From the NCBI GenBank assembly GCA_027482685.1, contig JAIXVU010000001.1, positions 64,910 to 128,909 on the forward strand: a stretch of 64,000 nucleotides of DNA. The letters are read 5' to 3'. Below are positions 6,296 through 38,492 of this stretch, piece by piece. The position numbers and the translations under genes were made by a program. Each line of letters begins with the position of its first letter. Within the stretch, counting starts at the first letter, position 1. A model generated the notes under the pieces. It did not search any database and was not told where the DNA came from. It saw nothing but the letters and a program-made list of their open reading frames with translations. This DNA is from a bacterium. GTDB lineage: Bacteria; Patescibacteriota; Minisyncoccia; Phycocordibacterales; UBA5272.

Positions 6296-6387
6296 AACCC
6301 CACTATTTCAAAGCACGACAATTTCTTGCTAGAAATTGTCTCTGTTCCGCGCCGTCGCGCTACACAAGGCTTTGAAATAGTGGGGTT
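6296..6387. repeat. Nested inverted-repeat element: 19-bp arms AACCCCACTATTTCAAAGC (6296-6314) and GCTTTGAAATAGTGGGGTT (6369-6387) enclose an inner 9-bp-stem palindrome GACAATTTC-TTGCTA-GAAATTGTC
   Basis: Both arms are exact reverse complements when read directly from the sequence. The element lies at the junction between the AT-rich backbone and the GC-rich cassette. Confidence 0.6.
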
Positions 6388-6404
6388 GGGTGTGGTGGAA
6401 TACA

Positions 6405-6456
6405 ATACAAAAAAGCCCCTCACTCACGTCGTCACGACATTAGTATTGAGGGGCTT
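6405..6456 (-). terminator. Intrinsic terminator for the GC-rich minus-strand gene
   Basis: An inverted repeat AAGCCCCTCA (6413-6422) / TGAGGGGCTT (6447-6456) is followed on the minus strand by a U-tract (plus-strand AAAAAA at 6408-6414), about 40 nt after the stop at 6497. Confidence 0.55.
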
Positions 6457-6496
6457 GGTCATCCATGGGCCTTCACAGGCGGTGGATGACGAGAGT

Positions 6497-7675
6497 TCAC
6501 TTCTGCTTCACATCCACGACTGCATTGGCGCGGTTCGGGATGTAGGCGCAACGTTCGTCCGGTTTCAGCTTCACTCCACCGCAGGTTGTTTGCGGAACGT
6601 TCTTGACGACTTTCGGAGTGAAGGACTGAATGAATGGCGCCTTGGGGGCCTCGATCCTGGGTGCAGGGTCGATGGCGACCGGTGGGGTGAACACCGCTGG
6701 CGGGCGCGGAGTACGGAAGACCTGTGTCTCCGTATATCCACATGGGAGCTTCTGAATGTTGTTTCCGAAGCTCTGGACACCGCCTTGATTGCTCACACCC
6801 AGGGCTCCATTCTGACCGTTTGCGGCAATACCGCTGCCGGCTGAACTGCCAACAATGAAGTTTGTGATCACGGCCTGATAGCCGCTCACACGACGTTGCA
6901 TTGTTACAAGATCCCCATCAATCCCGACAACTTCCCAGTTGTGGAAGACGTGAGAGGATCCGGGCACGGGCACGATCTTGGAGACTGTGCCATTTGACCT
7001 GGTCTTGGTGACCAATCCAAGGAAGGTGGCATGAGTTGCCACGACTTCACGGTCTACCTCGACTGTGAAGTCTCCTCCACAGCTCGTGATGATGCTCATC
7101 CCGAGCTGGCTCGCAGACATGATCTGCGGAGGGAGGCCTACCACTGCCGACTGCACTGGCGCGCGCACTGCTTGGTACACAGTGCCGCCGATCGTAGTGG
7201 TGGTCGTGTTGCCCGCAGCGCCGTTCGCTGAAGCTTGACCGAAACCGCCAGCACCCCCAGTTGCACGAACGTTGTTCGTGATCTGGTTGATGTTCTCGTT
7301 CGCGCTTGTGATGCGCGACTGGAGCTCTGTCCGTTGCTGATTGCGTTGTTCCGCAGTCAGTGTCTGATTCGACTCGAGCGAGGTCATCTGGGTCTGGAGG
7401 CTGTTGAGCTCCGCCCGAGCCGCTGCTAGAGCAGCTTGCTGTTGTGCAGCCGTTGCAGCTGCAGCAGTGTTCAATTCCGACGGAGCCGGTTGCGGGGTTG
7501 CGGGTGTTGTCGGCGGATGGTTGGTCTTCGGGCAGACGGGGTCTGCACTGTGAGCCGAACCAGGTCCGTTCGCACGATCCCAGTCAACGCACTCTTGCTG
7601 AGTCCACGCGAAGGCGGGGCTCGCAAAGAGCATGGCCATGACTGCCGCCGCGATGGCGCTGATGATCTTTTCCAT
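6497..7675 (-). CDS. Secreted Pro/Thr/Ala/Gln-rich coiled-coil protein of foreign (high-GC) composition; function unknown
   Basis: There is a signal peptide MEKIISAIAAAVMAMLFASPAFA, a Shine-Dalgarno GGAGAG (plus-strand CTCTCC, 7682-7687) 6 nt upstream of the ATG, and its own promoter and terminator. The gene is about 58-60% GC against a backbone of about 35%. The overlapping antisense ORFs are artefacts of the high GC content. Confidence 0.6.
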   Translation of the reverse strand: MEKIISAIAAAVMAMLFASPAFAWTQQECVDWDRANGPGSAHSADPVCPKTNHPPTTPATPQPAPSELNTAAAATAAQQQAALAAARAELNSLQTQMTSLESNQTLTAEQRNQQRTELQSRITSANENINQITNNVRATGGAGGFGQASANGAAGNTTTTTIGGTVYQAVRAPVQSAVVGLPPQIMSASQLGMSIITSCGGDFTVEVDREVVATHATFLGLVTKTRSNGTVSKIVPVPGSSHVFHNWEVVGIDGDLVTMQRRVSGYQAVITNFIVGSSAGSGIAANGQNGALGVSNQGGVQSFGNNIQKLPCGYTETQVFRTPRPPAVFTPPVAIDPAPRIEAPKAPFIQSFTPKVVKNVPQTTCGGVKLKPDERCAYIPNRANAVVDVKQK

Positions 7676-7767
7676 TTCGTTCTCTCCGTGGTTGCACGCG
7701 GTCTTTTTTAAATAACCAACGTGCAGGTTGAAATATGAACCTTAAACTTCAAGGTACAGCTGATAAG

Positions 7768-7796
7768 ATTATAGCAGATAAAAGTGCTTTTGTCAA
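7768..7796 (-). promoter_or_regulatory. Consensus sigma70 promoter (TTGACA-N17-TATAAT) reading leftward into the GC-rich gene
   Basis: On the minus strand, TTGACA lies at 7796-7791, followed by a 17-nt spacer and TATAAT at 7773-7768. This is about 85 nt upstream of the start codon at 7675. Confidence 0.55.
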
Positions 7797-7878
7797 TAGT
7801 TATCTTGACAAAATTGAGTATGCTATTTTATATATAAAAATTGCAAAAAAGTATTGTAAAATATAGCTATTAATGAAT

Positions 7879-12331: not shown

Positions 12332-13258
12332 CTACTTTTCTTTATAGAGGTCTTGGTTGAATCCTCCTACCCCCACGTGCTCCATCTGACCATCATCATA
12401 GATAATGTGTTCGTATGGCATACAGTGGATACACCCCCCTGCCTTTGTATCATCATTATATGTTCCTTTTGGACAGGCAAATGTTTGTTCACCTTCACGC
12501 TTAGCTTGTACCCGCATTTCTTTTACTTGTAATGCGACATCAAATACAGCATTAAATGCTTCGTCTTTATTTGGTAGTGTAACTTCTACCATCTTGTCAC
12601 TCTCTAGATACCAGTAACTTGCTTTTGTTACAGTTCGACCTTGAAGAGCATTACAGAGAAGGAGATAGATCGGAAGCTGTAGCGATCCATCCCTCTCCTC
12701 ATGCTTTCCGGTTTTGAAATCTACAATATGGAGTGAGTCAGTATCTGGCAGATATTCTATCCAGTCAACAAGGCCGTTGAGAATGATGTTGTGATCTTCG
12801 CTTAGATAAAAGTTCGGTGCCATCGTCTCACGCTTGAGCTTGATGCATTTGTTCGGTAAGAATCGTGGATTCTTGATAACATTGTTGATCATCTCTTTGC
12901 CACGCATTTTGAATTGTTCTTCTTCATCTAATGATGAGAAGCCACCGATAGGACCAGAGACTTTGAGCCACGCTTCTTCAAAGCGTGCACGCAAGTCTCT
13001 GTCCATACGCTCGTGTGATGGGTAGTTAGCAAGATCTTCCAAGACTTCATGGGCCGCAATACCAAGCGACATATGTGGAGATATGATAGATATTTTCCTC
13101 CCGTTTTTATTTTTATAGACATTGTGCAGGTAGTAGAGTCGCGGACATTTGAGAAAGTCTCCCATAGATGAATGCGACACCCACACAGCTGAGTACTTAT
13201 CAGGCATAGTAAGTAGAGTATAGCAAAAACCTCTACATACTATGAACAATAGCCACAT
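12332..13258 (-). CDS. PD-(D/E)XK nuclease with a C-terminal Cys cluster (Cas4 / AddB-nuclease-domain-like); the likely start is internal (MPDKYS...)
   Basis: The RecB-family motif IVDFKTGKHEE and the Cys set FACPKG...GGCIHC (an Fe-S ligand pattern as in AddB/Cas4) are present. The same DFKTGK motif occurs in the neighbouring helicase-nuclease. Confidence 0.7.
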   Translation of the reverse strand: MWLLFIVCRGFCYTLLTMPDKYSAVWVSHSSMGDFLKCPRLYYLHNVYKNKNGRKISIISPHMSLGIAAHEVLEDLANYPSHERMDRDLRARFEEAWLKVSGPIGGFSSLDEEEQFKMRGKEMINNVIKNPRFLPNKCIKLKRETMAPNFYLSEDHNIILNGLVDWIEYLPDTDSLHIVDFKTGKHEERDGSLQLPIYLLLCNALQGRTVTKASYWYLESDKMVEVTLPNKDEAFNAVFDVALQVKEMRVQAKREGEQTFACPKGTYNDDTKAGGCIHCMPYEHIIYDDGQMEHVGVGGFNQDLYKEK

Positions 13259-13340
13259 AACCTTGACAAAATGCGATTATATATACTGTTTTCGTCTTTC
13301 AAGACAAGACGTTCATTAACAAATGCTCAAGGAGAGCAAT

Positions 13341-13955
13341 ATGCAAAAGCAGATCAAGGAAGTTTCCATCTGGGGCGGTCTGATCATCGAGTGCCTCAAG
13401 AAGATGAAAGCTGTTGCCCTTCAAGGCAATGTCATCGCCAAGCAGGAGCTGAACGGTGTCATCGTTCTCGTCGAAGGCAACTCCGACGTGGACCTGCTGT
13501 TCCGCGACCAACAACGTGCGCAGTCGGGTTACATCGACGGCCTCGTTGGCCCTCATTCGAAAGCAGAACTTTCTGCCGACGACATCGCCAACGATCAGCG
13601 TATCCGTGAAGCCAACGAAGCACGTTGGGCGAAGGAAAGCGCTGAACGGAAAGTGATCCAAGACCAGAAGGAACGTGAATTCTTCGCCGAAATCAGTACC
13701 TGCCCTACGATGGATCGCGACGAAGCCAAGTGGCAAGAAGGCATCAAGGCGCAGAAAGGCGACGGCTACGGCCTCGCGGTCTACACCTACGCCGAGTACT
13801 TGGCACGTCTGATGCAGAAGAAAATGGCCGAGGGCTACAAGCTCGAAGCTGTCGCCGACGAGTGCTCCAACAAGGCCGACATCCCGTGTGGCATCTCGGG
13901 ATTTATGTACGGCTGTGCTGTGTCCTCTCTGGCGAACTGCTGGAAGCACGGCTAA
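13341..13955 (+). CDS. Hypothetical protein of foreign (GC-rich) composition, inserted between the AddA-like gene and its nuclease partner
   Basis: The Shine-Dalgarno AAGGAGAG lies 5 nt before the ATG at 13341, a TTGACA box sits at 13262-13267, and there is a strong terminator at 14091-14123. GC is about 57%. The antisense 252-aa ORF is rejected. Confidence 0.6.
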   Translation: MQKQIKEVSIWGGLIIECLKKMKAVALQGNVIAKQELNGVIVLVEGNSDVDLLFRDQQRAQSGYIDGLVGPHSKAELSADDIANDQRIREANEARWAKESAERKVIQDQKEREFFAEISTCPTMDRDEAKWQEGIKAQKGDGYGLAVYTYAEYLARLMQKKMAEGYKLEAVADECSNKADIPCGISGFMYGCAVSSLANCWKHG

Positions 13956-14090
13956 GAACTCCGTGTCTGGCACAACAAGAAGTACCAACTCAAGGACGAA
14001 GGTGACAAGGCAAACGCCTCTGGCGGTGTCCTGAACCCTGCGCTCCTTTCTTATCAATTGATTTCTTAAGAAATCTCGTCACTGACGAAT

Positions 14091-14123
14091 ACCGCTCGCA
14101 ATATCTTGCGAGCGGTTCTTTTA
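14091..14123 (+). terminator. Intrinsic terminator (CCGCTCGCAA-TATC-TTGCGAGCGG followed by TTCTTTT)
   Basis: Read directly from the sequence, 135 nt downstream of the stop at 13955. Confidence 0.6.
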
Positions 14124-14278
14124 TGTCCTACTACTCACACAACTTTTCTATGAGAATTGCCTTGCACAGTGCGACGGCGCGAGCAGAGCAAAAAGCTAGC
14201 AAGCTTTTATGCGTGCAATTCGATGGAAAAGTTAAAAAAGAATTTCACGAAATGTTCATTGTATCGAATCACTTAAAT

Positions 14279-14593
14279 CTATTTCGAAATATCCAAAACA
14301 TCTTGCACGTTCCAGTTATTTTTCTTTAGTTCATTTATCGCATCTATGATCTCTTGCTGATTGCTACCATATACCTTAAACGTCTGCTTGCTACTATTTA
14401 CTACTACAACCATTTCAAAAGTTTCGTTATTTAGTTTTTTTAACTTCACGCTTTTCCCACGCGCCTTTACGTTAGCTTCTATAACACCAGGAGAAACGTA
14501 GGCCTGTATTTTTTTAAGAATCTTAAGGATATCTTTCGCACCTTCTATTGTCGTTGTGTGCGTTCCTCGTTCGTTGATGTGCATCTTTTCCAT
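14279..14593 (-). CDS. Hypothetical small protein (104 aa), likely co-transcribed with the helicase-nuclease
   Basis: It starts 6 nt after the upstream gene's stop, and its composition is like that of the backbone genome. Confidence 0.45.
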   Translation of the reverse strand: MEKMHINERGTHTTTIEGAKDILKILKKIQAYVSPGVIEANVKARGKSVKLKKLNNETFEMVVVVNSSKQTFKVYGSNQQEIIDAINELKKNNWNVQDVLDISK

Positions 14594-14598
14594 AATAC

Positions 14599-17500
14599 TT
14601 ATATTCTACCCTCTATCAAATCATCTTCAAACTGTAACAACCCCTTATAACTTTCGCCATAGGCACTGAGATCAGGCACGATATCAAGGGTTACTATTTT
14701 TTTGTATACGGCTTGTACTAGTTTCTTAGTACGTTCTATTTCTGCTTCGTCAGCATCAAGTACTAGTTCTGTGAACTTCTTCTCTTCTACGAACCAAAGT
14801 GAGAGTTTACCAACGGGGTAGTCTCTGTAATGAATAGAATTCTCAAGGAGAAGTTTGTATACAATGAGCTGTTGGCGATACTTATGAAGCTTGATTTTGT
14901 CACTATCAGTTTTTCCTTCATCCCACCGAGTAAATGCTTTACCGGTTTTAAAATCTACAACATGGTATCGCTTATCTCGTAGTTGTAGTAAATCAAGTTT
15001 TCCGATGATATGAGCTTCCCCTATCATCACACCTTCATCACGCATATCTACCTCTATCTTGTCGTCTTGTGTGAACATACCATCAGTCATCTGATAGAGA
15101 CTTGCTAGCACTTCTTCTCCACGAGAGGATTGCTTGGTGACTTCATACGACGGCAATCTACCACGCGAGAGCTCTTTCTTAAAAATTATCATGAGATGTT
15201 CCATAGATGGATGCTTGCCATCGTTATACTTTGGATACATAACTAACTCTTCAAGTGCTTTGTGTATTGCGGATCCATACACACCGGACGGGTTCATCGG
15301 TTGAGGAAATCGTAAAAGATTCTGCTCAATGAAGTATAACGGCCCTCCGTCTTTGATATTAGTGAAGTTATTAAGGTGAGTAACTGGCATCTTGTAATTC
15401 TGTACGAGACGCTTAAGAAGAGCCCACTCATTCTCCTTAAATGGTGTTTTATAAAGCGAAAGCGCACTCTCATGAGCCTCAACCGGCATATCAGATGTTG
15501 CAAGTAACTCACCAGCTGGCAGATATCTCACAGGAGTATCATGGCTCGTTAGATGAAGTGTATGCTTAGCGCGAGTTATCGCAACATAGAGCAATCGGAT
15601 GAAGTCGTCCTCAGTATCTCCAGCTGGTTGCATGAGTGGTACAAGAGGTGATGGGAGTGGGGCGATGTTGGTCTTTGGAGCTCGTGTCCATGAGCTATCG
15701 TGGACTGATATCAGATACACCACCTCAAATTCTAAACCCTTTGACGCATGTGCAGTCATCAGTTGTACGGAGTTCTCATGCTTCATAAATGGTGACTCAC
15801 TAACAAGAGCAATCTCATGATCTATATGCATCTGAACGAATGGTTCTACATCAGTCACATAAAGCGTCTCCCCTTCTTTCCAGACACGAAGAGATTCGAT
15901 AAATGTCTTAAGTGATGCAAGGAATGCGACGTACGTCGTCGGACTCTTCTGTATAAGTTCTCTAGAAAAATAATAATTCTTGAAACCGCTTCCTTCCATG
16001 AATTTTTCTAAAATATGTTCAAGTGGTGTGGATTCACTTTCAATTGTTAACTGAGCAAAGAGTTTGCCGAGAGTTTGTAGTTTAGTATCTGTTGTTGTTA
16101 TGAGCATCTCAGTCCATGTCATATGTGACTCTTTAGCAGTAACAGCAAGAGTAAACAATGTCTCACGGTCAATCTCGAAGCATGTATGCGATAGAAGATG
16201 TGGCAAAATGTGATCCTTGGTACTTTCATTACGAAGAACTGATGAGATGTATGATGAGAACTCTATGAGAATCTTCACATGAGGCTCATCAAACACATTT
16301 GCCTTCTTTATATACTCATACGGAATGTCTGCTCTATCTAAGTATGGGAGTATCGCACGTAGCTCTTTATGTCCACGACTAAGTATCGCTATCTCCTGTG
16401 CTGGAATACCGGCATCTAGTTGTGCGCGGATACTACGAGCAATATGTGTGTATTCTTCTACATCAGAGGATGATTGTAGTATGTGTATACCCCCACCTTT
16501 TAATGAACTATTTTTTGCGGTTAGAATTTTTTGGATATCATCATATTTGTTTTCTAGCCTTCCTTTACCTTGTGTGATGAGTGTACGAGCAAGATCAAGG
16601 ATAGGCTGTGTTGAGCGATAGTTTTTATCAAGCACTATGGTTGTTACGTCTTTGTAGAGAGCATCTCGGAAGCGCATTATATGTGAAATCTCCGCACCTT
16701 GGAACTTGTATATCGCCTGATCATCATCTCCTACTACACAGACATTTGGTCGCCCTTCGTGTACTCTGTTACTGCTAATGTGACGCACTAGTAACATCTG
16801 AGCCTCATTGGTATCTTGGAACTCATCTATCATAATGTACTGATATTGTTCTTCAAGACTATTACGAAGTATCTCGTTATCGGCAAGTGCATGTACCACC
16901 TCAATTATCATATCGTCGTAGTCATAGAGTGCACGTTTATACATCTCCTCGCTGTATTTTGTATAGAGCTCTGCAACCGCGAATATCTTTTCTTTGTTAT
17001 GACCATCTTTGAGTATCCATACACTATCTACTTTTACCATAAACTTGTCTCTCCAGTCAGCAAGCGGCTCAGTCTTTTCTAACACTTCAGATGCTTCTAT
17101 CGCAGAAGTAAGCGTTGAAGCTAGGTAGAGTGATGTAGTACCTGCGAGATATTGTAATGAGTTGGCAATTTCGGTTAATACGTGTAGGTTTTTTATTGAT
17201 AATCTTTCTGGCCAAGTGGTAAGAATAGTATTTATGCTCTCATATTCCTCAGGAAGTTTACGTATAACTGCAAGGTATTCTTCTGCTGTATATCCGTAAC
17301 TTTTGATATGTTTTATTCTATCCTTTACATGACTTAGATATGAGTAGCCCATCTCTGGGTGAAAGCTCGCGAGCGGATGTCCGTGTGGAAGCGTGGCAAA
17401 AATCGACTGGAGTATCTCTGCGCGTGCTACGTCATTTGCCTGTGAGAAGTGTGATGCTTTCCAAAAATATTCTGGGAATCTCGCTATAATATGATTACAA

Positions 17501-17796
17501 AATCCATGAAAGGTAAATATTGAAACTCTATACGCATCCGCTCCAATTAACCCATGCAATCGTTCTCGCATATTAGTAGCGCCATTATCTGTAAAAGTAA
17601 GACATAGAATATTCTTAGGCGACACGTCACGAGAGCGTAAGATATTACCAACGCGGAGTGATAACAGCTCTGTTTTACCACTTCCTGGACCTGCTATTAC
17701 CATCACAGGACCATCTATTGTCTCAACAGCTAATCGTTGTTCGTTGTTAAGTGTGGCGAGACGTGCATCAAATGATTGTGGTTTACTTTTTTCCAT
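14599..17796 (-). CDS. UvrD/PcrA-like superfamily-1 helicase fused to a C-terminal PD-(D/E)XK nuclease (AddA-like helicase-nuclease)
   Basis: Walker A is AGPGSGKTELL, helicase motifs run through the protein, and the C-terminal nuclease motif is HVVDFKTGKA. The length is 1065 aa. Confidence 0.8.
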   Translation of the reverse strand: MEKSKPQSFDARLATLNNEQRLAVETIDGPVMVIAGPGSGKTELLSLRVGNILRSRDVSPKNILCLTFTDNGATNMRERLHGLIGADAYRVSIFTFHGFCNHIIARFPEYFWKASHFSQANDVARAEILQSIFATLPHGHPLASFHPEMGYSYLSHVKDRIKHIKSYGYTAEEYLAVIRKLPEEYESINTILTTWPERLSIKNLHVLTEIANSLQYLAGTTSLYLASTLTSAIEASEVLEKTEPLADWRDKFMVKVDSVWILKDGHNKEKIFAVAELYTKYSEEMYKRALYDYDDMIIEVVHALADNEILRNSLEEQYQYIMIDEFQDTNEAQMLLVRHISSNRVHEGRPNVCVVGDDDQAIYKFQGAEISHIMRFRDALYKDVTTIVLDKNYRSTQPILDLARTLITQGKGRLENKYDDIQKILTAKNSSLKGGGIHILQSSSDVEEYTHIARSIRAQLDAGIPAQEIAILSRGHKELRAILPYLDRADIPYEYIKKANVFDEPHVKILIEFSSYISSVLRNESTKDHILPHLLSHTCFEIDRETLFTLAVTAKESHMTWTEMLITTTDTKLQTLGKLFAQLTIESESTPLEHILEKFMEGSGFKNYYFSRELIQKSPTTYVAFLASLKTFIESLRVWKEGETLYVTDVEPFVQMHIDHEIALVSESPFMKHENSVQLMTAHASKGLEFEVVYLISVHDSSWTRAPKTNIAPLPSPLVPLMQPAGDTEDDFIRLLYVAITRAKHTLHLTSHDTPVRYLPAGELLATSDMPVEAHESALSLYKTPFKENEWALLKRLVQNYKMPVTHLNNFTNIKDGGPLYFIEQNLLRFPQPMNPSGVYGSAIHKALEELVMYPKYNDGKHPSMEHLMIIFKKELSRGRLPSYEVTKQSSRGEEVLASLYQMTDGMFTQDDKIEVDMRDEGVMIGEAHIIGKLDLLQLRDKRYHVVDFKTGKAFTRWDEGKTDSDKIKLHKYRQQLIVYKLLLENSIHYRDYPVGKLSLWFVEEKKFTELVLDADEAEIERTKKLVQAVYKKIVTLDIVPDLSAYGESYKGLLQFEDDLIEGRI

Positions 17797-18385
17797 GAAT
17801 AGAAGCGAGATTTTCTAGTTCTTCAATGCCTGTCATTAGACGAGAAATTAAAAGATGATCATCACCTAACTTTTTACGGACGATACTGTGAACTTCTTTG
17901 TGATACCATATAGTGCTATCTAGCCCAGACGCAAATGTTTTTAGAAAAACATCATTATCATGGACTGCGCCATGGATAATACTCTCTGTATTGTGAATTT
18001 TATCTGCGAGTGATACTAACGCACTTTCGGTTGTTCCACCTTCTAGTTTTTTTAGATACACTTGTTTACGTGTAAGCCACGGAAGCTGTTCATTTTTGGT
18101 CTTATTAGCATCAAGAGGTTCTGTTACGTTATAAACAATATCCGCAACACGCTTGCCGCAATCTTGTACGAGATTATCATACGTGTAATTAGGCACATCT
18201 TCTAGTGCGTCGTGCATGAGCCCTGCGATGATAACATCTTCATCAGTTGTCACTTCACGTAGCAACATTGCAACAGCAACCAGATGACTGATGTATGGAG
18301 TATTGTGGCTGTCTTTTCGTGATTGGGTGTGATGGAGACGAGATGCAAGTTTGATTGCTTGATTAATTCGTGGAGTAAAATGCAT
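17783..18385 (-). CDS. HD-domain protein resembling the RelA/SpoT (p)ppGpp hydrolase domain (small alarmone hydrolase-like)
   Basis: HLVAVAMLL...IIAGLMHDALEDV matches the SpoT hydrolase HD motif. It overlaps the start of the AddA-like gene by 14 nt. Confidence 0.55.
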   Translation of the reverse strand: MHFTPRINQAIKLASRLHHTQSRKDSHNTPYISHLVAVAMLLREVTTDEDVIIAGLMHDALEDVPNYTYDNLVQDCGKRVADIVYNVTEPLDANKTKNEQLPWLTRKQVYLKKLEGGTTESALVSLADKIHNTESIIHGAVHDNDVFLKTFASGLDSTIWYHKEVHSIVRKKLGDDHLLISRLMTGIEELENLASIHGKK

Positions 18386-36170: not shown

Positions 36171-38492
36171 TTATACTTTTGCGTACAGTTTCTCTTGGAA
36201 TTTGAAGAAAATTGAACGAATCAAATCAATATCACCAAGTACATCTTTTGCATCCTCAAGTGACTGATATTTGTTTGTGAGCAATATAGGTAATTTCTCT
36301 TGGTCTAATTCTTCTACACCTGTTTCGATATACTTACTTAATACGAACTCAATAAACTCTTTTTGTTTATCATTAAGAGATTCAAAAATAGTTTCCTGAG
36401 ATGTTTCCACTCTTATATCTCTTGGTATTGGTTTAATATCACTATTAAATACATATTCCAACACATCAAAAAGATCACTATTCTCAGCATCAATCAATTT
36501 CTGTAATGTAGTTAATTCGTCTTTTCCATATCCTGCTTCGTCTAGTTTTTCTAGTAAACTTTTTCTAGTTATTGGATTACTCCAAATTTCTCGTAATTCT
36601 TCTTCACTTGTAAAGAATTTAGGTAATGTCCCAAACAAGTTTTGTAAAAACTCTTCCACAGAAATAGGTTTACCGTCTGCACCCCAAAATGAAGTTGCAA
36701 TCATGTGCTGTATTTCACGCTCTTTCCCATCTCGTAACTTAATCTTAAGTTTCTTATTCGGTTCAGTTGGTGGTTCTGGTGGAAAAGGTGGTTCACCCTC
36801 TACTCCTTTTGGTGGTTTAGGTTCCGTAGGTTCGTCATCTACTGGACTGATTGGTTCACCATCCCACTCAGGATCTGCAAAATGATGATAGGCATCTACA
36901 AAGTCATAAATAGTGAAGAACTCCTTACCGTCAAATAAACGTGTACCACGCCCCACAATTTGCTTAAACTCAATCATAGAGTTCACTGGTCGCATTAGAA
37001 CAATATTACGAATATTTCTAGCATCTACTCCAGTTGAAAGTTTCTGTGAAGTGGTGAGTATGGTCGGTATAGTTTTTTCGTTATCTTGGAACTCTCTCAA
37101 GAACTGTTCTCCTATTTCTCCGTCGTTAGCAGTAACACGCACACAATAATTTGGATCAGTGCTTTTCTTGTACTGATTAATCAAATCTCGAACAGCAGCC
37201 GCATGATCTTGAGTAGCACAGAAAACAATAGCTTTTTCATTTTGATCAGCTTCATCCATAAATACTTTCACACGCTTTTCCTCTCTCGCTTTAATTTCGA
37301 TTATCTTATTAAAATCAGGTTCGGTATAAAGTTTTCCTTCCTCGATTTCCCCTTCGATGATTTGGTCATCACTTGTATAAATATAATCGTCTAATGTTGT
37401 CTTAATACGCTTAACCTTAAAAGGAGTAAGGAAACCATCATTTATGCCTTCTTTTAGAGAATAAATATATACTGGCTCACCAAAGTATTTATACGTATCT
37501 ACATTGTCCTTACGTTTTGGTGTGGCTGTTAAACCTAATTGCACAGCAGGAGAAAAATATTCCAAGATTCCTCTCCAGTTTCCTTCGTCGTTTGCACCAC
37601 CACGATGACATTCGTCTATAATAATAAAATCAAAGTAATCAGGTGAGTATTCTCCGAAGTATGGGGCAGGATTACCATCTACATCTTTACCACTCATAAA
37701 GGTTTGAAAGATAGTAAAGAATATAGAGCCATTAGTAGGTACACTTCCTTTTTTACTTATCTCTTTTGGATTGATACGTACAAGAGAGTCTTCTGGAAAT
37801 GAAGAGAATGAGTTATATGCTTGGTCAGCTAGTATGTTTCTATCTGCTAAAAATAGAATACGAGGACGACGAGAACCATCACGCTTTAAGTTCCATCTTG
37901 TCTGAAAAAGTTTCCATGCAATCTGAAAAGCAATAGCTGTTTTACCTGTACCAGTGGCTAATGTTAGTAAGATACGATCCTTATTATTTGCAACAGATTC
38001 AAGAACATTTTTTACTGCTATTTCTTGATAGTAACGTAATTGCCAAGATCCACTCTTATCTTCAAATGGAACAGAACTAAACTTTTCCCTCCATTCATTT
38101 TGAACTGCAAAAGTTTTATTCCAAAGTTCGTCAGGAGAAAGATACTCAGAAACTAAACCCTCAATACCTGTTTTCATACAGATACTGTATATTTCTTTTC
38201 CATTTGTGGAATAGGTTGTTTCTATGTTTAATTTCTCTGCGTACTGCTTGGCTTGTGCAACACCTTCACCAACCCCTATGTTTGCACTCTTTGCCTCAAC
38301 CACAGCCAATTTTATGCCTTTGTAGACCAATACATAATCAGCAGTAAGTAACTTTCCTCTTATACCTCCAGTTTGAATTTTACCAGCAGTAATATTGTAT
38401 TCACGGAGTATTTTAGATCCTTCAATAACACCCCAACCACAATCTTTTAGCTTTGGATCAATTAGCTCTGCCCTTGTTTCAGATTCGTTCAT
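36171..38492 (-). CDS. hsdR: Type I restriction enzyme R subunit (HsdR), compact form
   Basis: The N-terminal HsdR nuclease domain (AVVEAKS), the SF2 motifs LATGTGKT and IIIDECHRG, and a position at the end of the hsdM-hsdS operon all fit HsdR. Confidence 0.8.
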   Translation of the reverse strand: MNESETRAELIDPKLKDCGWGVIEGSKILREYNITAGKIQTGGIRGKLLTADYVLVYKGIKLAVVEAKSANIGVGEGVAQAKQYAEKLNIETTYSTNGKEIYSICMKTGIEGLVSEYLSPDELWNKTFAVQNEWREKFSSVPFEDKSGSWQLRYYQEIAVKNVLESVANNKDRILLTLATGTGKTAIAFQIAWKLFQTRWNLKRDGSRRPRILFLADRNILADQAYNSFSSFPEDSLVRINPKEISKKGSVPTNGSIFFTIFQTFMSGKDVDGNPAPYFGEYSPDYFDFIIIDECHRGGANDEGNWRGILEYFSPAVQLGLTATPKRKDNVDTYKYFGEPVYIYSLKEGINDGFLTPFKVKRIKTTLDDYIYTSDDQIIEGEIEEGKLYTEPDFNKIIEIKAREEKRVKVFMDEADQNEKAIVFCATQDHAAAVRDLINQYKKSTDPNYCVRVTANDGEIGEQFLREFQDNEKTIPTILTTSQKLSTGVDARNIRNIVLMRPVNSMIEFKQIVGRGTRLFDGKEFFTIYDFVDAYHHFADPEWDGEPISPVDDEPTEPKPPKGVEGEPPFPPEPPTEPNKKLKIKLRDGKEREIQHMIATSFWGADGKPISVEEFLQNLFGTLPKFFTSEEELREIWSNPITRKSLLEKLDEAGYGKDELTTLQKLIDAENSDLFDVLEYVFNSDIKPIPRDIRVETSQETIFESLNDKQKEFIEFVLSKYIETGVEELDQEKLPILLTNKYQSLEDAKDVLGDIDLIRSIFFKFQEKLYAKV

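Follow-up and report, generated by a model that had tools for sequence, protein, structure and literature searches.

The chromosomal stretch analyzed here (64,000 nucleotides of contig JAIXVU010000001.1; hereafter, the window) encodes on its minus strand a helicase fused to a nuclease (14599..17796) and, downstream of it, a small stand-alone nuclease with a putative iron-sulfur cluster (12332..13207). We propose that these two genes are the center of a vertically inherited DNA-end-processing gene set of the Paceibacteria, a reading that we consider to have about an even chance of being right, and that draws on observed domain content, conserved catalytic and cysteine residues, gene linkage, paralogy of the nuclease modules, and vertical inheritance. 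In the window, the pair has recently been split by ~0.8 kb of foreign, opposite-strand DNA that carries a Tad4-like gene of a phage family, itself already hit by a nonsense mutation. The window as a whole is a chromosomal segment of the Paceibacteria/Parcubacteria type, within the candidate phyla radiation (CPR), with a guanine-plus-cytosine (GC) content of ~38% (mean 0.384), and homologs of its proteins carry the annotation Nomurabacteria, Yonathbacteria, or Paceibacterota. An earlier note on this DNA (the original prediction) had named five open reading frames (ORFs) at this locus, and all five were found where it had placed them, with strong domain matches. Its domain calls were also right: the helicase is UvrD-type and carries a RecB-type nuclease, the second enzyme is a PD-(D/E)XK nuclease that stands alone and has a cysteine cluster of the AddB/Cas4 type, and a further gene resembles the HD hydrolase of SpoT; its claim that a foreign gene splits the helicase-nuclease pair was likewise borne out.

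The helicase gene encodes 1065 aa, which Pfam and NCBIfam models assign to a superfamily 1A (SF1A) helicase of the UvrD/PcrA type fused to a C-terminal nuclease of the RecB family. The motor portion matched UvrD-helicase (E=1.9e-60) and UvrD_C (1e-36), and aa 826-1034 (14695..15321, minus strand) matched PDDEXK_1 (E=7e-13; 49.5 bits against a cut-off of 22) and hold the motif VVDFKTGK. Across 40 orthologs, all SF1 ATPase motifs were invariant, as were the nuclease residues H845, E849, D935, D948, K950, Q976, and Y980 (40/40). The nuclease domain has neither a cysteine cluster nor an iron-sulfur cluster, and most of the 40 orthologs have no cysteine at all in their last 270 aa. When the protein was compared by sequence with entries of the PDB, PcrA (E=1e-51) and UvrD (9e-48) ranked first, and AdnB, AddA, and RecB followed at 1e-17 to 1e-12 (AddA at 2e-12). 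The two AddA family models scored far below threshold (TIGR02785 addA_Gpos, 109.9 bits vs 707.65; TIGR02784 addA_alphas, 131.3 bits vs 860.75), the RecB family threshold was missed as well, and the PcrA and UvrD models scored higher than AddA (302 and 232 bits), yet below their own cut-offs. The label "AddA-like" in the original prediction thus holds for the architecture (an SF1A motor with intact ATPase motifs and a cluster-free RecB-type nuclease) but not at the level of the family, where the protein is closer to PcrA and UvrD. Among the PADLOC profiles it matched GajB (E=5e-75) and the DRT helicase; the GajB profiles have no C-terminal nuclease and no GajA match was found among the neighboring genes, so the locus does not qualify as Gabija.

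The small nuclease (PDDEXK_1, PF12705; E=4.8e-20, 73 bits vs a cut-off of 22) contains the motif IVDFKTGK and cysteines in KCPR...FACP...GGCIHC. Its ORF extends to 13258, and the length of 308 aa given in the original prediction should be corrected to 291 aa, starting at M18 (13207), because MPDKY is where the family begins, as both the alignment and the closest relative's DNA show. A search for the family returned 3493 matches, the best 120 at 65-83% identity and with a typical length of 294 aa. In an alignment of 27 sequences the catalytic set H53, E57, D148, D163-x-K165, and Q177-x3-Y181 was invariant, as were four cysteines, one N-terminal (C21) and three C-terminal (C245, C259, C262). This arrangement is the iron-sulfur "staple" pattern of Cas4, AddB, and AdnA (PMC12094033), and we regard the protein as a putative 4Fe-4S nuclease. 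An AlphaFold (AF2) model of it reached a predicted local distance difference test score (pLDDT) of 85 and a predicted template-modeling (TM) score (pTM) of 0.80. Searched with Foldseek, the model returned ACE1 first (E ~1e-8, TM ~0.6, 17-19% identity), then the nuclease domains of AdnA, AddB, and Dna2, and after these RecE and Cas4; ACE1 was also the sole sequence match in the PDB. Like the protein described here, ACE1 is a solo Cas4-family enzyme of small size (~270 aa) and has one N-terminal and three C-terminal cysteines, which in ACE1 bind 4Fe-4S. This closest structural match acts on single-stranded DNA (ssDNA) as an endonuclease and works with a partner protein; it is cyanobacterial and encoded with a long-A Argonaute, whereas the window has no Argonaute at this position and the neighbor is the helicase-nuclease.

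The original prediction had described the small nuclease as an AddB reduced to its nuclease module. As an analogy this is apt, given the cysteine cluster and the fold; as a statement of descent it did not hold up. Among 1.84 billion cluster representatives, a profile search picked out only 626 related clusters, almost all of which are short solo proteins, and in none of these relatives was an AddB-type helicase-like body found. The RexB/AddB model TIGR02774 (rexB_recomb) gave 17.6 bits against a cut-off of 718.35. The large N-terminal, inactivated helicase-like domain that defines AddB/RexB (~1100 aa in total) is missing, leaving the nuclease domain only, while the other defining feature, a RecB-type nuclease with one N-terminal and three C-terminal cysteines, appears to be present at the level of sequence and fold. 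Cas4 models came closer (Pfam Cas_Cas4, 22.7 bits at a cut-off of 22.7; TIGR00372, 27.4 bits vs 65), and the PADLOC profiles matched were those of Cas4 (E=1e-8), an Argonaute-associated nuclease, and DruK. No cas domain was found among the neighboring genes, which comprise the helicase, HD, SpoU, and small orphan genes, and for this reason the protein counts as a "solo" member of the Cas4 family. It groups with the AddB/Cas4 iron-sulfur nucleases rather than with an unrelated nuclease family, and is a solo Cas4-family nuclease resembling the nuclease module of AddB, with nothing to indicate a reduced AddB. Long relatives are few and are built as tandem nuclease arrays. Among P0361, P0443, P0465, P0480, and P0505, one has a domain of the GIY-YIG homing-endonuclease type inserted in the middle of the protein, and the others are single polypeptides with two, three, four, or five PD-(D/E)XK domains in a row (554 to 1297 aa).

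The nuclease domain of the helicase and the solo nuclease are paralogs (28% identity over ~200 aa, E=1e-7). Since the two modules are paralogous and the cysteine cluster occurs in the solo nuclease only, the pair reproduces the asymmetry of AddA and AddB, in which a motor with a cluster-free nuclease is joined by a second nuclease that has the cluster. The likeness to AddAB extends to the presence of one SF1A motor with two RecB-family nuclease modules, the four-cysteine cluster being confined to the non-motor partner, to the adjacency of the genes on one strand, and to the match between the solo nuclease and the nuclease domain of AddB in fold. Unlike AddB, the partner here has 291 aa and is without the ~800-aa helicase-like body that reads Chi; the AddA and AddB family models fall far below threshold and the cysteine spacing is different; and the nuclease has its nearest relatives among solo proteins, its linkage to the helicase is not universal, and the two genes have different histories. 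The mycobacterial heterodimer AdnAB is also built from UvrD-like motors fused to RecB-like nucleases; the iron-sulfur nuclease domain of AdnA is the second-best fold match of the solo nuclease, and AdnB is the nearest helicase-nuclease in the PDB to the helicase, ranked after PcrA, UvrD, and Rep. The present arrangement differs from AdnAB in that the locus, both in the window and in the 40 species examined, has a single motor-nuclease gene, and in that the iron-sulfur nuclease is fused to no motor.

We examined gene order in related species by scanning one genome per species, which gave 80 loci (designated by L-numbers), 66 of them judgeable for the helicase. The closest relative (L002) has the order HD, helicase, nuclease, with syntenic flanks, neither the 104-aa gene nor the foreign cassette, and the nuclease ~50 bp after the helicase, just as the original prediction had anticipated for a relative without the foreign gene. 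Between the window and L002 the nuclease is 83% identical and the helicase 75%, alongside AcrB at 85%, HI0933 at 80%, and the S41 peptidase at 79%. In 41 of the 66 judgeable loci the helicase lies upstream of the nuclease on the same strand, at distances from 4 bp to 3.3 kb (four gaps of 4-11 bp), and this linkage holds for all three of the helicase types described below (A, B, and C). Of the 41 species, at least 29 have HD on the helicase's strand and upstream of it, and in nine the two genes are immediate neighbors. The genes for the SpoU methylase, HD, and membrane proteins recur in the same order across loci, indicating that the region is inherited vertically; in many species the nuclease is found between SpoU, HI0933, and ribosomal protein genes, and it is as conserved as these housekeeping neighbors.

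The only gene family that recurs in the gap between helicase and nuclease is that of the 104-aa protein (14279..14593, minus strand), which starts 5 nt after the helicase stop codon. The original prediction had treated this gene as one of the intervening elements separating the pair; with ~200 homologs at 68-84% identity, it is a conserved Paceibacteria family and is not foreign. It was present in 16 species loci, directly after the helicase in 11 and directly after the nuclease in four, with a weak, distant copy in one; the four loci in which it follows the nuclease have no helicase nearby, and it occurs mostly with type A. Its position suggests that it is an accessory of the nuclease or of the helicase. 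The protein gave sub-threshold matches only in Pfam, NCBIfam, PADLOC, and PHROGs. Its AF2 model (pLDDT 80) shows an alpha-beta4-alpha fold, preceded by a flexible N-terminus with an invariant NERGxHT motif, for which the fold search returned no informative or significant match. The one structural neighbor with a meaningful score was an unnamed viral protein of 92 aa (BFVD entry A0A5P8D682; TM score 0.62-0.70, 28% identity, E=3e-4), and viruses may carry a version of this accessory.

Upstream of the helicase, the HD_4 gene (17783..18385, minus strand; 200 aa) overlaps the helicase start by 14 nt (17783-17796). Its product matched PF13328 (E=1.7e-16; 60.8 bits vs a cut-off of 27.2) and the model TIGR00691 at positions 1-122 only; an H...HD...ED motif is visible and there is no synthetase domain, as predicted for a hydrolase-only member of the RelA/SpoT family, similar to the small alarmone hydrolases.

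We favor a shared role in DNA-end processing because the catalytic residues of both enzymes are invariant, because the 104-aa gene directly follows the helicase in some loci and the nuclease in others and so links the two, and because the linkage is kept in most judgeable species, at times with near-contiguous genes, and across helicase types. The proposed set would consist of a UvrD/PcrA-type motor of 3'-5' polarity with a cluster-free RecB-type nuclease, predicted to be active, and ancestrally the staple nuclease would have lain directly downstream, with the 104-aa accessory in some species and HD upstream. By analogy with AddAB and AdnAB, the motor would enter a DNA end and track 3'-5' along one strand, which the helicase's own nuclease would cut, while the small iron-sulfur nuclease would cut the displaced 5' strand as a single-strand endonuclease. 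The outcome would be either a 3' tail for RecA or the degradation of linear DNA. Such a system would use one motor and two nucleases, as AddAB does, minus the inactive helicase-like (Chi-reading) body of AddB. The known enzymes that the small nuclease resembles, ACE1, AdnA, and AddB, cut ssDNA endonucleolytically, their target being the unwound 5' strand (PMC12094033), and in a cyanobacterium that lacks RecBCD and AddAB, a Cas4-like nuclease limits plasmid maintenance, as does UvrD (PMC10653904). Within this scheme we infer the physical association of the two enzymes, the assignment of strands, the role in double-strand-break resection, and any part played by the 104-aa and HD proteins.

Several observations weigh against a dedicated pair. 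The cysteine spacing of the solo nuclease is C-x13-C-x2-C, unlike the C-x2-C-x5-C that is canonical for AddB and Cas4, and it is for this reason that we speak of a cluster that we infer. In 25 of the 66 judgeable loci, at least 5 kb around the nuclease are free of a helicase; at L007 and L008, for example, it lies between the genes for CTP synthase/Gmad2 and cytochrome oxidase. The nuclease is also far more conserved than the helicase (~70% vs 44% for L004 and L006), which hints at a wider or separate role. When the helicase profile was carried to metagenomes, 80 loci with relatives at 23-56% identity were recovered, and at none of them was the solo nuclease or the 104-aa gene nearby, so that the pairing is a feature of this clade, outside of which the motor-nuclease occurs by itself. 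The closer full-length relatives among these had no consistent partner and no adjoining AddB- or AdnA-like protein; upstream genes of AddB size were found only beside very distant helicases.

The two genes also differ in history. Across 40 species the helicases fall into three deep types, A (1064-1070 aa, including that of the window), B (1095-1106 aa), and an intermediate type C (1067-1077 aa). The identity between types A and B is 0.43-0.50, a narrow band that extends over the whole gene, including the nuclease domain, while the solo nucleases of the A-type loci intermingle in the tree with those of the B-type loci, at identities of up to 85%; the trees are neighbor-joining trees without support values, and the pairwise identities are independent of them. 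Nuclease distances correlate with those of SpoU (Spearman 0.61) and HD (0.37), whereas helicase distances, as a further point against the pair, follow none of nuclease, SpoU, or HD (0.15-0.23). Individual comparisons show the same pattern: L016 and L024 share 85% identity in the nuclease and 72% in HD, and 50% in the helicase; L012 and L016 share 84% in the nuclease and 72% in SpoU, and 48% in the helicase; and L016 and L017, which have the same helicase type, share 85%, 61%, and 78% in nuclease, HD, and helicase, respectively. Among the 121 pairs with a nuclease identity of at least 75%, the helicase is less than 52% identical in 56. From these identities, it looks as though one helicase gene has been exchanged for another at the same site, the flanks being conserved, or as though ancient tandem paralogs have been differentially lost, and separate histories of this kind weaken the case for an obligate two-subunit machine.

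The same facts favor, in the first place, an alternative in which the two are independent enzymes that share a conserved neighborhood, their adjacency being no more than inherited gene order; we consider this somewhat unlikely. The helicase would then be a self-sufficient fusion of UvrD and a RecB-type nuclease, like its counterparts in other lineages, and the small nuclease would have a housekeeping job of its own, for instance in flap or ssDNA processing during replication or repair, or in degrading imported DNA in bacteria that scavenge nucleotides. The unlinked loci, the metagenomic helicases without the nuclease, the discordant histories, and the greater conservation of the nuclease all agree with it. 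Moreover, the whole stretch from HD to SpoU is syntenic in many species, which makes adjacency weak evidence, and even at loci where the helicase adjoins, there is a -10-like element and a short leader ahead of the nuclease. In the window, transcription of the nuclease probably starts from a separate promoter-like element immediately before the gene (13217-13246). Independence accounts less well for the same-strand gaps of a few base pairs in four species, which suggest co-translation, for a linkage that persists although the helicase type changes between A, B, and C, for a 104-aa gene that alternates between the 3' ends of the two genes, and for a pairing of nucleases with and without a cluster that mirrors AddA and AddB.

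The space between helicase and nuclease is variable in its own right. Most species (L015, L020, L025, L035, and L068, among others) have lineage-specific ORFs of ~135-210 aa there, on the opposite strand and often with raised GC; no Pfam family matched these ORFs, and several of them share the terminal motif ...VP[IL]A[LF]xxFYxxY. We did not adopt the idea that the gap is a special hotspot, as the whole HD-to-SpoU stretch is rich in small, fast-evolving ORFs. At the unlinked Yonathbacteria loci L007 and L008 (801-1929), small genes resembling GIY-YIG and LAGLIDADG homing endonucleases lie a few kb upstream of the nuclease.

A bolder version of the end-processing proposal holds that the Paceibacteria replaced AddAB and RecBCD by a minimal, modular end-resection machine composed of the motor-nuclease, a free iron-sulfur nuclease that makes the cut in the second strand, and sometimes the 104-aa protein as an adaptor, in which the motors (types A, B, and C) are exchanged whole, perhaps under pressure from phage inhibitors, and the nuclease stays nearly constant. 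This version we regard as unlikely. If true, the Paceibacteria would have an AddAB-like machine in which no subunit reads Chi and the motors can be swapped. A search of the literature for the AddAB and RecBCD content of CPR genomes found nothing.

Hudaiberdiev et al. (2017; PMC5704561) proposed UvrD-Cas4-like fusions as components of defense systems, and the original prediction had offered a defense module as its alternative. In that case the locus would degrade invading linear DNA of phages or plasmids, in the manner of the UvrD-Cas4 fusions of defense islands or of RecBCD as a hub of immunity, and the helicase would be diversifying under phage inhibitors. The exchange of the helicase in place for a form only ~46% identical between close species is an arms-race-like pattern; the PADLOC matches of helicase (GajB, DRT) and nuclease (Cas4, Argonaute-associated nuclease, DruK) point the same way; and the gap gathers variable, often GC-elevated orphan genes, here including a homolog of a phage anti-defense protein. 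These PADLOC matches are, however, generic for UvrD and Cas4, and no GajA, Argonaute, cas, or restriction gene is adjacent. Defense systems are usually patchy and mobile, whereas the nuclease is housekeeping-like in its conservation, tracks its flanking genes, and sits among those for SpoU, HI0933, and ribosomal proteins. With its genes in a vertically inherited housekeeping neighborhood, a defense module is disfavored, and we consider it improbable. It is still less probable, to the point of being remote, that the locus is part of a canonical system, with a full-length AddB, RecC, or AdnA elsewhere and a nuclease unrelated to helicase function: our view is of 64 kb of the genome, and the sizes of types A (~1065 aa) and B (~1100 aa) do resemble those of AdnA and AdnB, but the window holds no candidate of AddB or RecC size (its ORFs of at least 700 aa are AcrB, HsdR, and the helicase only), two helicase copies occurred in 0/40 species loci, both types keep intact ATPase motifs and lack the cysteine cluster, unlike AdnA, and no AddB-like protein stands beside the closer metagenomic relatives of the helicase.

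The DNA that splits the pair in the window is a GC-rich cassette on the plus strand, annotated as an ORF at 13323/13341..13955. Its GC content is 0.56 against the window mean of 0.384, and GC at third codon positions (GC3) is 0.69, compared with 0.35-0.42 in the neighboring host genes; this value also excludes amino-acid composition as the origin of the GC island. The original prediction had bounded the cassette at 13341..13955. Homologs and an AAGGAG ribosome-binding site support the start at 13341, but the end does not stand: in-frame homology continues past the TAA at 13953-13955 to 14069, and an intrinsic-terminator hairpin (14091..14116, plus strand; 11-bp stem with 7 GC pairs, T-rich tail) follows 22 nt past the ancestral stop. 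The gene thus spans 13341..14069 and encodes two domains, of which the C-terminal one is Tad4 (Pfam PF25186, also phrog_9822). As annotated, the ORF scores 59.4 bits against a cut-off of 25, and with the TAA replaced by X it scores 84.4 bits over profile positions 5-106 of 113. Full-length homologs have 236-243 aa and a Glu or Asp at the position of the stop (CWKHG[ED]xLR), from which the window copy is judged to be interrupted by a single GAA-to-TAA change. The frame is therefore not intact, and the last third of the Tad4 domain lies past the stop; the 37 codons after the TAA are still conserved, which points to a recent nonsense mutation. Because a few homologs have their natural end close to this position, the truncated protein may conceivably retain some function.

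An assembly chimera could be excluded, as four contigs that were assembled independently from sibling samples reproduce the cassette, both junctions, and the stop codon with 100% identity; one of these contigs covers the region in full. The cassette gene was found in none of the 80 related species loci. Its flanks show no target-site duplication or terminal inverted repeats, its DNA similarity to other copies stops at the gene edges, and no sigma-70 promoter was detected above chance. In other CPR genomes a Tad4-like gene likewise stands alone between housekeeping genes (GyrB|x|PheT; LeuRS|x|TsaD), and the flanking DNA is not shared; the copy in L095 is again anomalous, with a GC of 0.58 vs 0.36. 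Two-domain copies at L092 (7001-7732), L094 (7001-7822), and L095 (7001-7627) occupy a different site in each CPR genome and are usually GC-anomalous. The gene thus behaves like a lone mobile gene of CPR chromosomes. Tad4 itself is a phage protein that binds the TIR domain of ThsB and inhibits Thoeris, a loop of it entering the ThsB active site (PMC13402655). The Tad4 domain on its own, as a protein of ~100 aa, is common in viral contigs. The inserted gene shares with Tad4 the C-terminal domain, above the Pfam threshold and matching phrog_9822, and differs from it in having two domains (~240 aa, with an extra N-terminal domain), in occurring as a lone GC-rich gene in CPR chromosomes, and, for this copy, in being truncated.

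Elsewhere, the window encodes CysS, DnaB, the ribosomal proteins L9 and L27, an AcrB-type pump, and a subunit of a type I restriction system. This R subunit (ResIII, EcoEI_R_C, HSDR_N; 36171..38492, minus strand) heads four more large minus-strand ORFs that extend to 44004 and are probably the rest of the restriction-modification system. Just past this block is a LOOT RNA (Rfam RF03000; 44107..44228, plus strand), matched over the full length of the model at 93 bits vs a gathering score of 46. The strongest GC island of the window (6301..7800, up to 0.63) coincides with an ORF for a secreted protein of 392 aa (6497..7675, minus strand) with a signal-peptide-like start and long low-complexity stretches rich in Ala, Gln, Thr, Gly, and Pro. 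This protein matched no Pfam or PHROG family and is poorly conserved in the closest relative; the high GC of the island is due to its Ala/Gly/Pro-rich composition.

Most of the parts described here are already known. Solo Cas4-like genes are over-represented in CPR genomes without CRISPR, including Parcubacteria and Nomurabacteria, for which roles in repair or defense have been proposed; fusions of UvrD helicases to pfam12705 nucleases are on record; and unfused operons of UvrD and a Cas4-like gene, proposed to be repair operons, occur in Clostridiales (Hudaiberdiev et al. 2017; PMC5704561). The present locus differs from these systems in that it combines a fusion protein with a solo iron-sulfur nuclease, to which the 104-aa protein is sometimes added, in a conserved core-genome context, and in that the fused nuclease domain has no cysteine cluster. 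The published fusion family, moreover, is found mainly in restriction-modification and Dcm/Vsr defense contexts, which are absent here. What is new, then, is the combination itself, conserved as a core-genome set within one clade, together with the AddA/AddB-like division of nuclease types, the helicase's apparent replacement in place, and the identification of the decaying insert as Tad4-like.

The CPR, or Patescibacteria, comprise a large share of bacterial diversity, with tiny genomes and mostly without cultured members. Should the two enzymes prove to be independent, what is left would be a routine annotation of domain families already known; two side results are of use in their own right, namely the apparent exchange of the helicase gene at a fixed site and the lone GC-rich homolog of an anti-Thoeris protein (Tad4) at varied CPR sites. 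In either case, the locus provides the solo Cas4-like family of the CPR, flagged in 2017, with a concrete, testable partner and context. If the pair does work together, it would be the smallest known two-nuclease resection machine, and it would show what the large body of AddB is, and is not, needed for.

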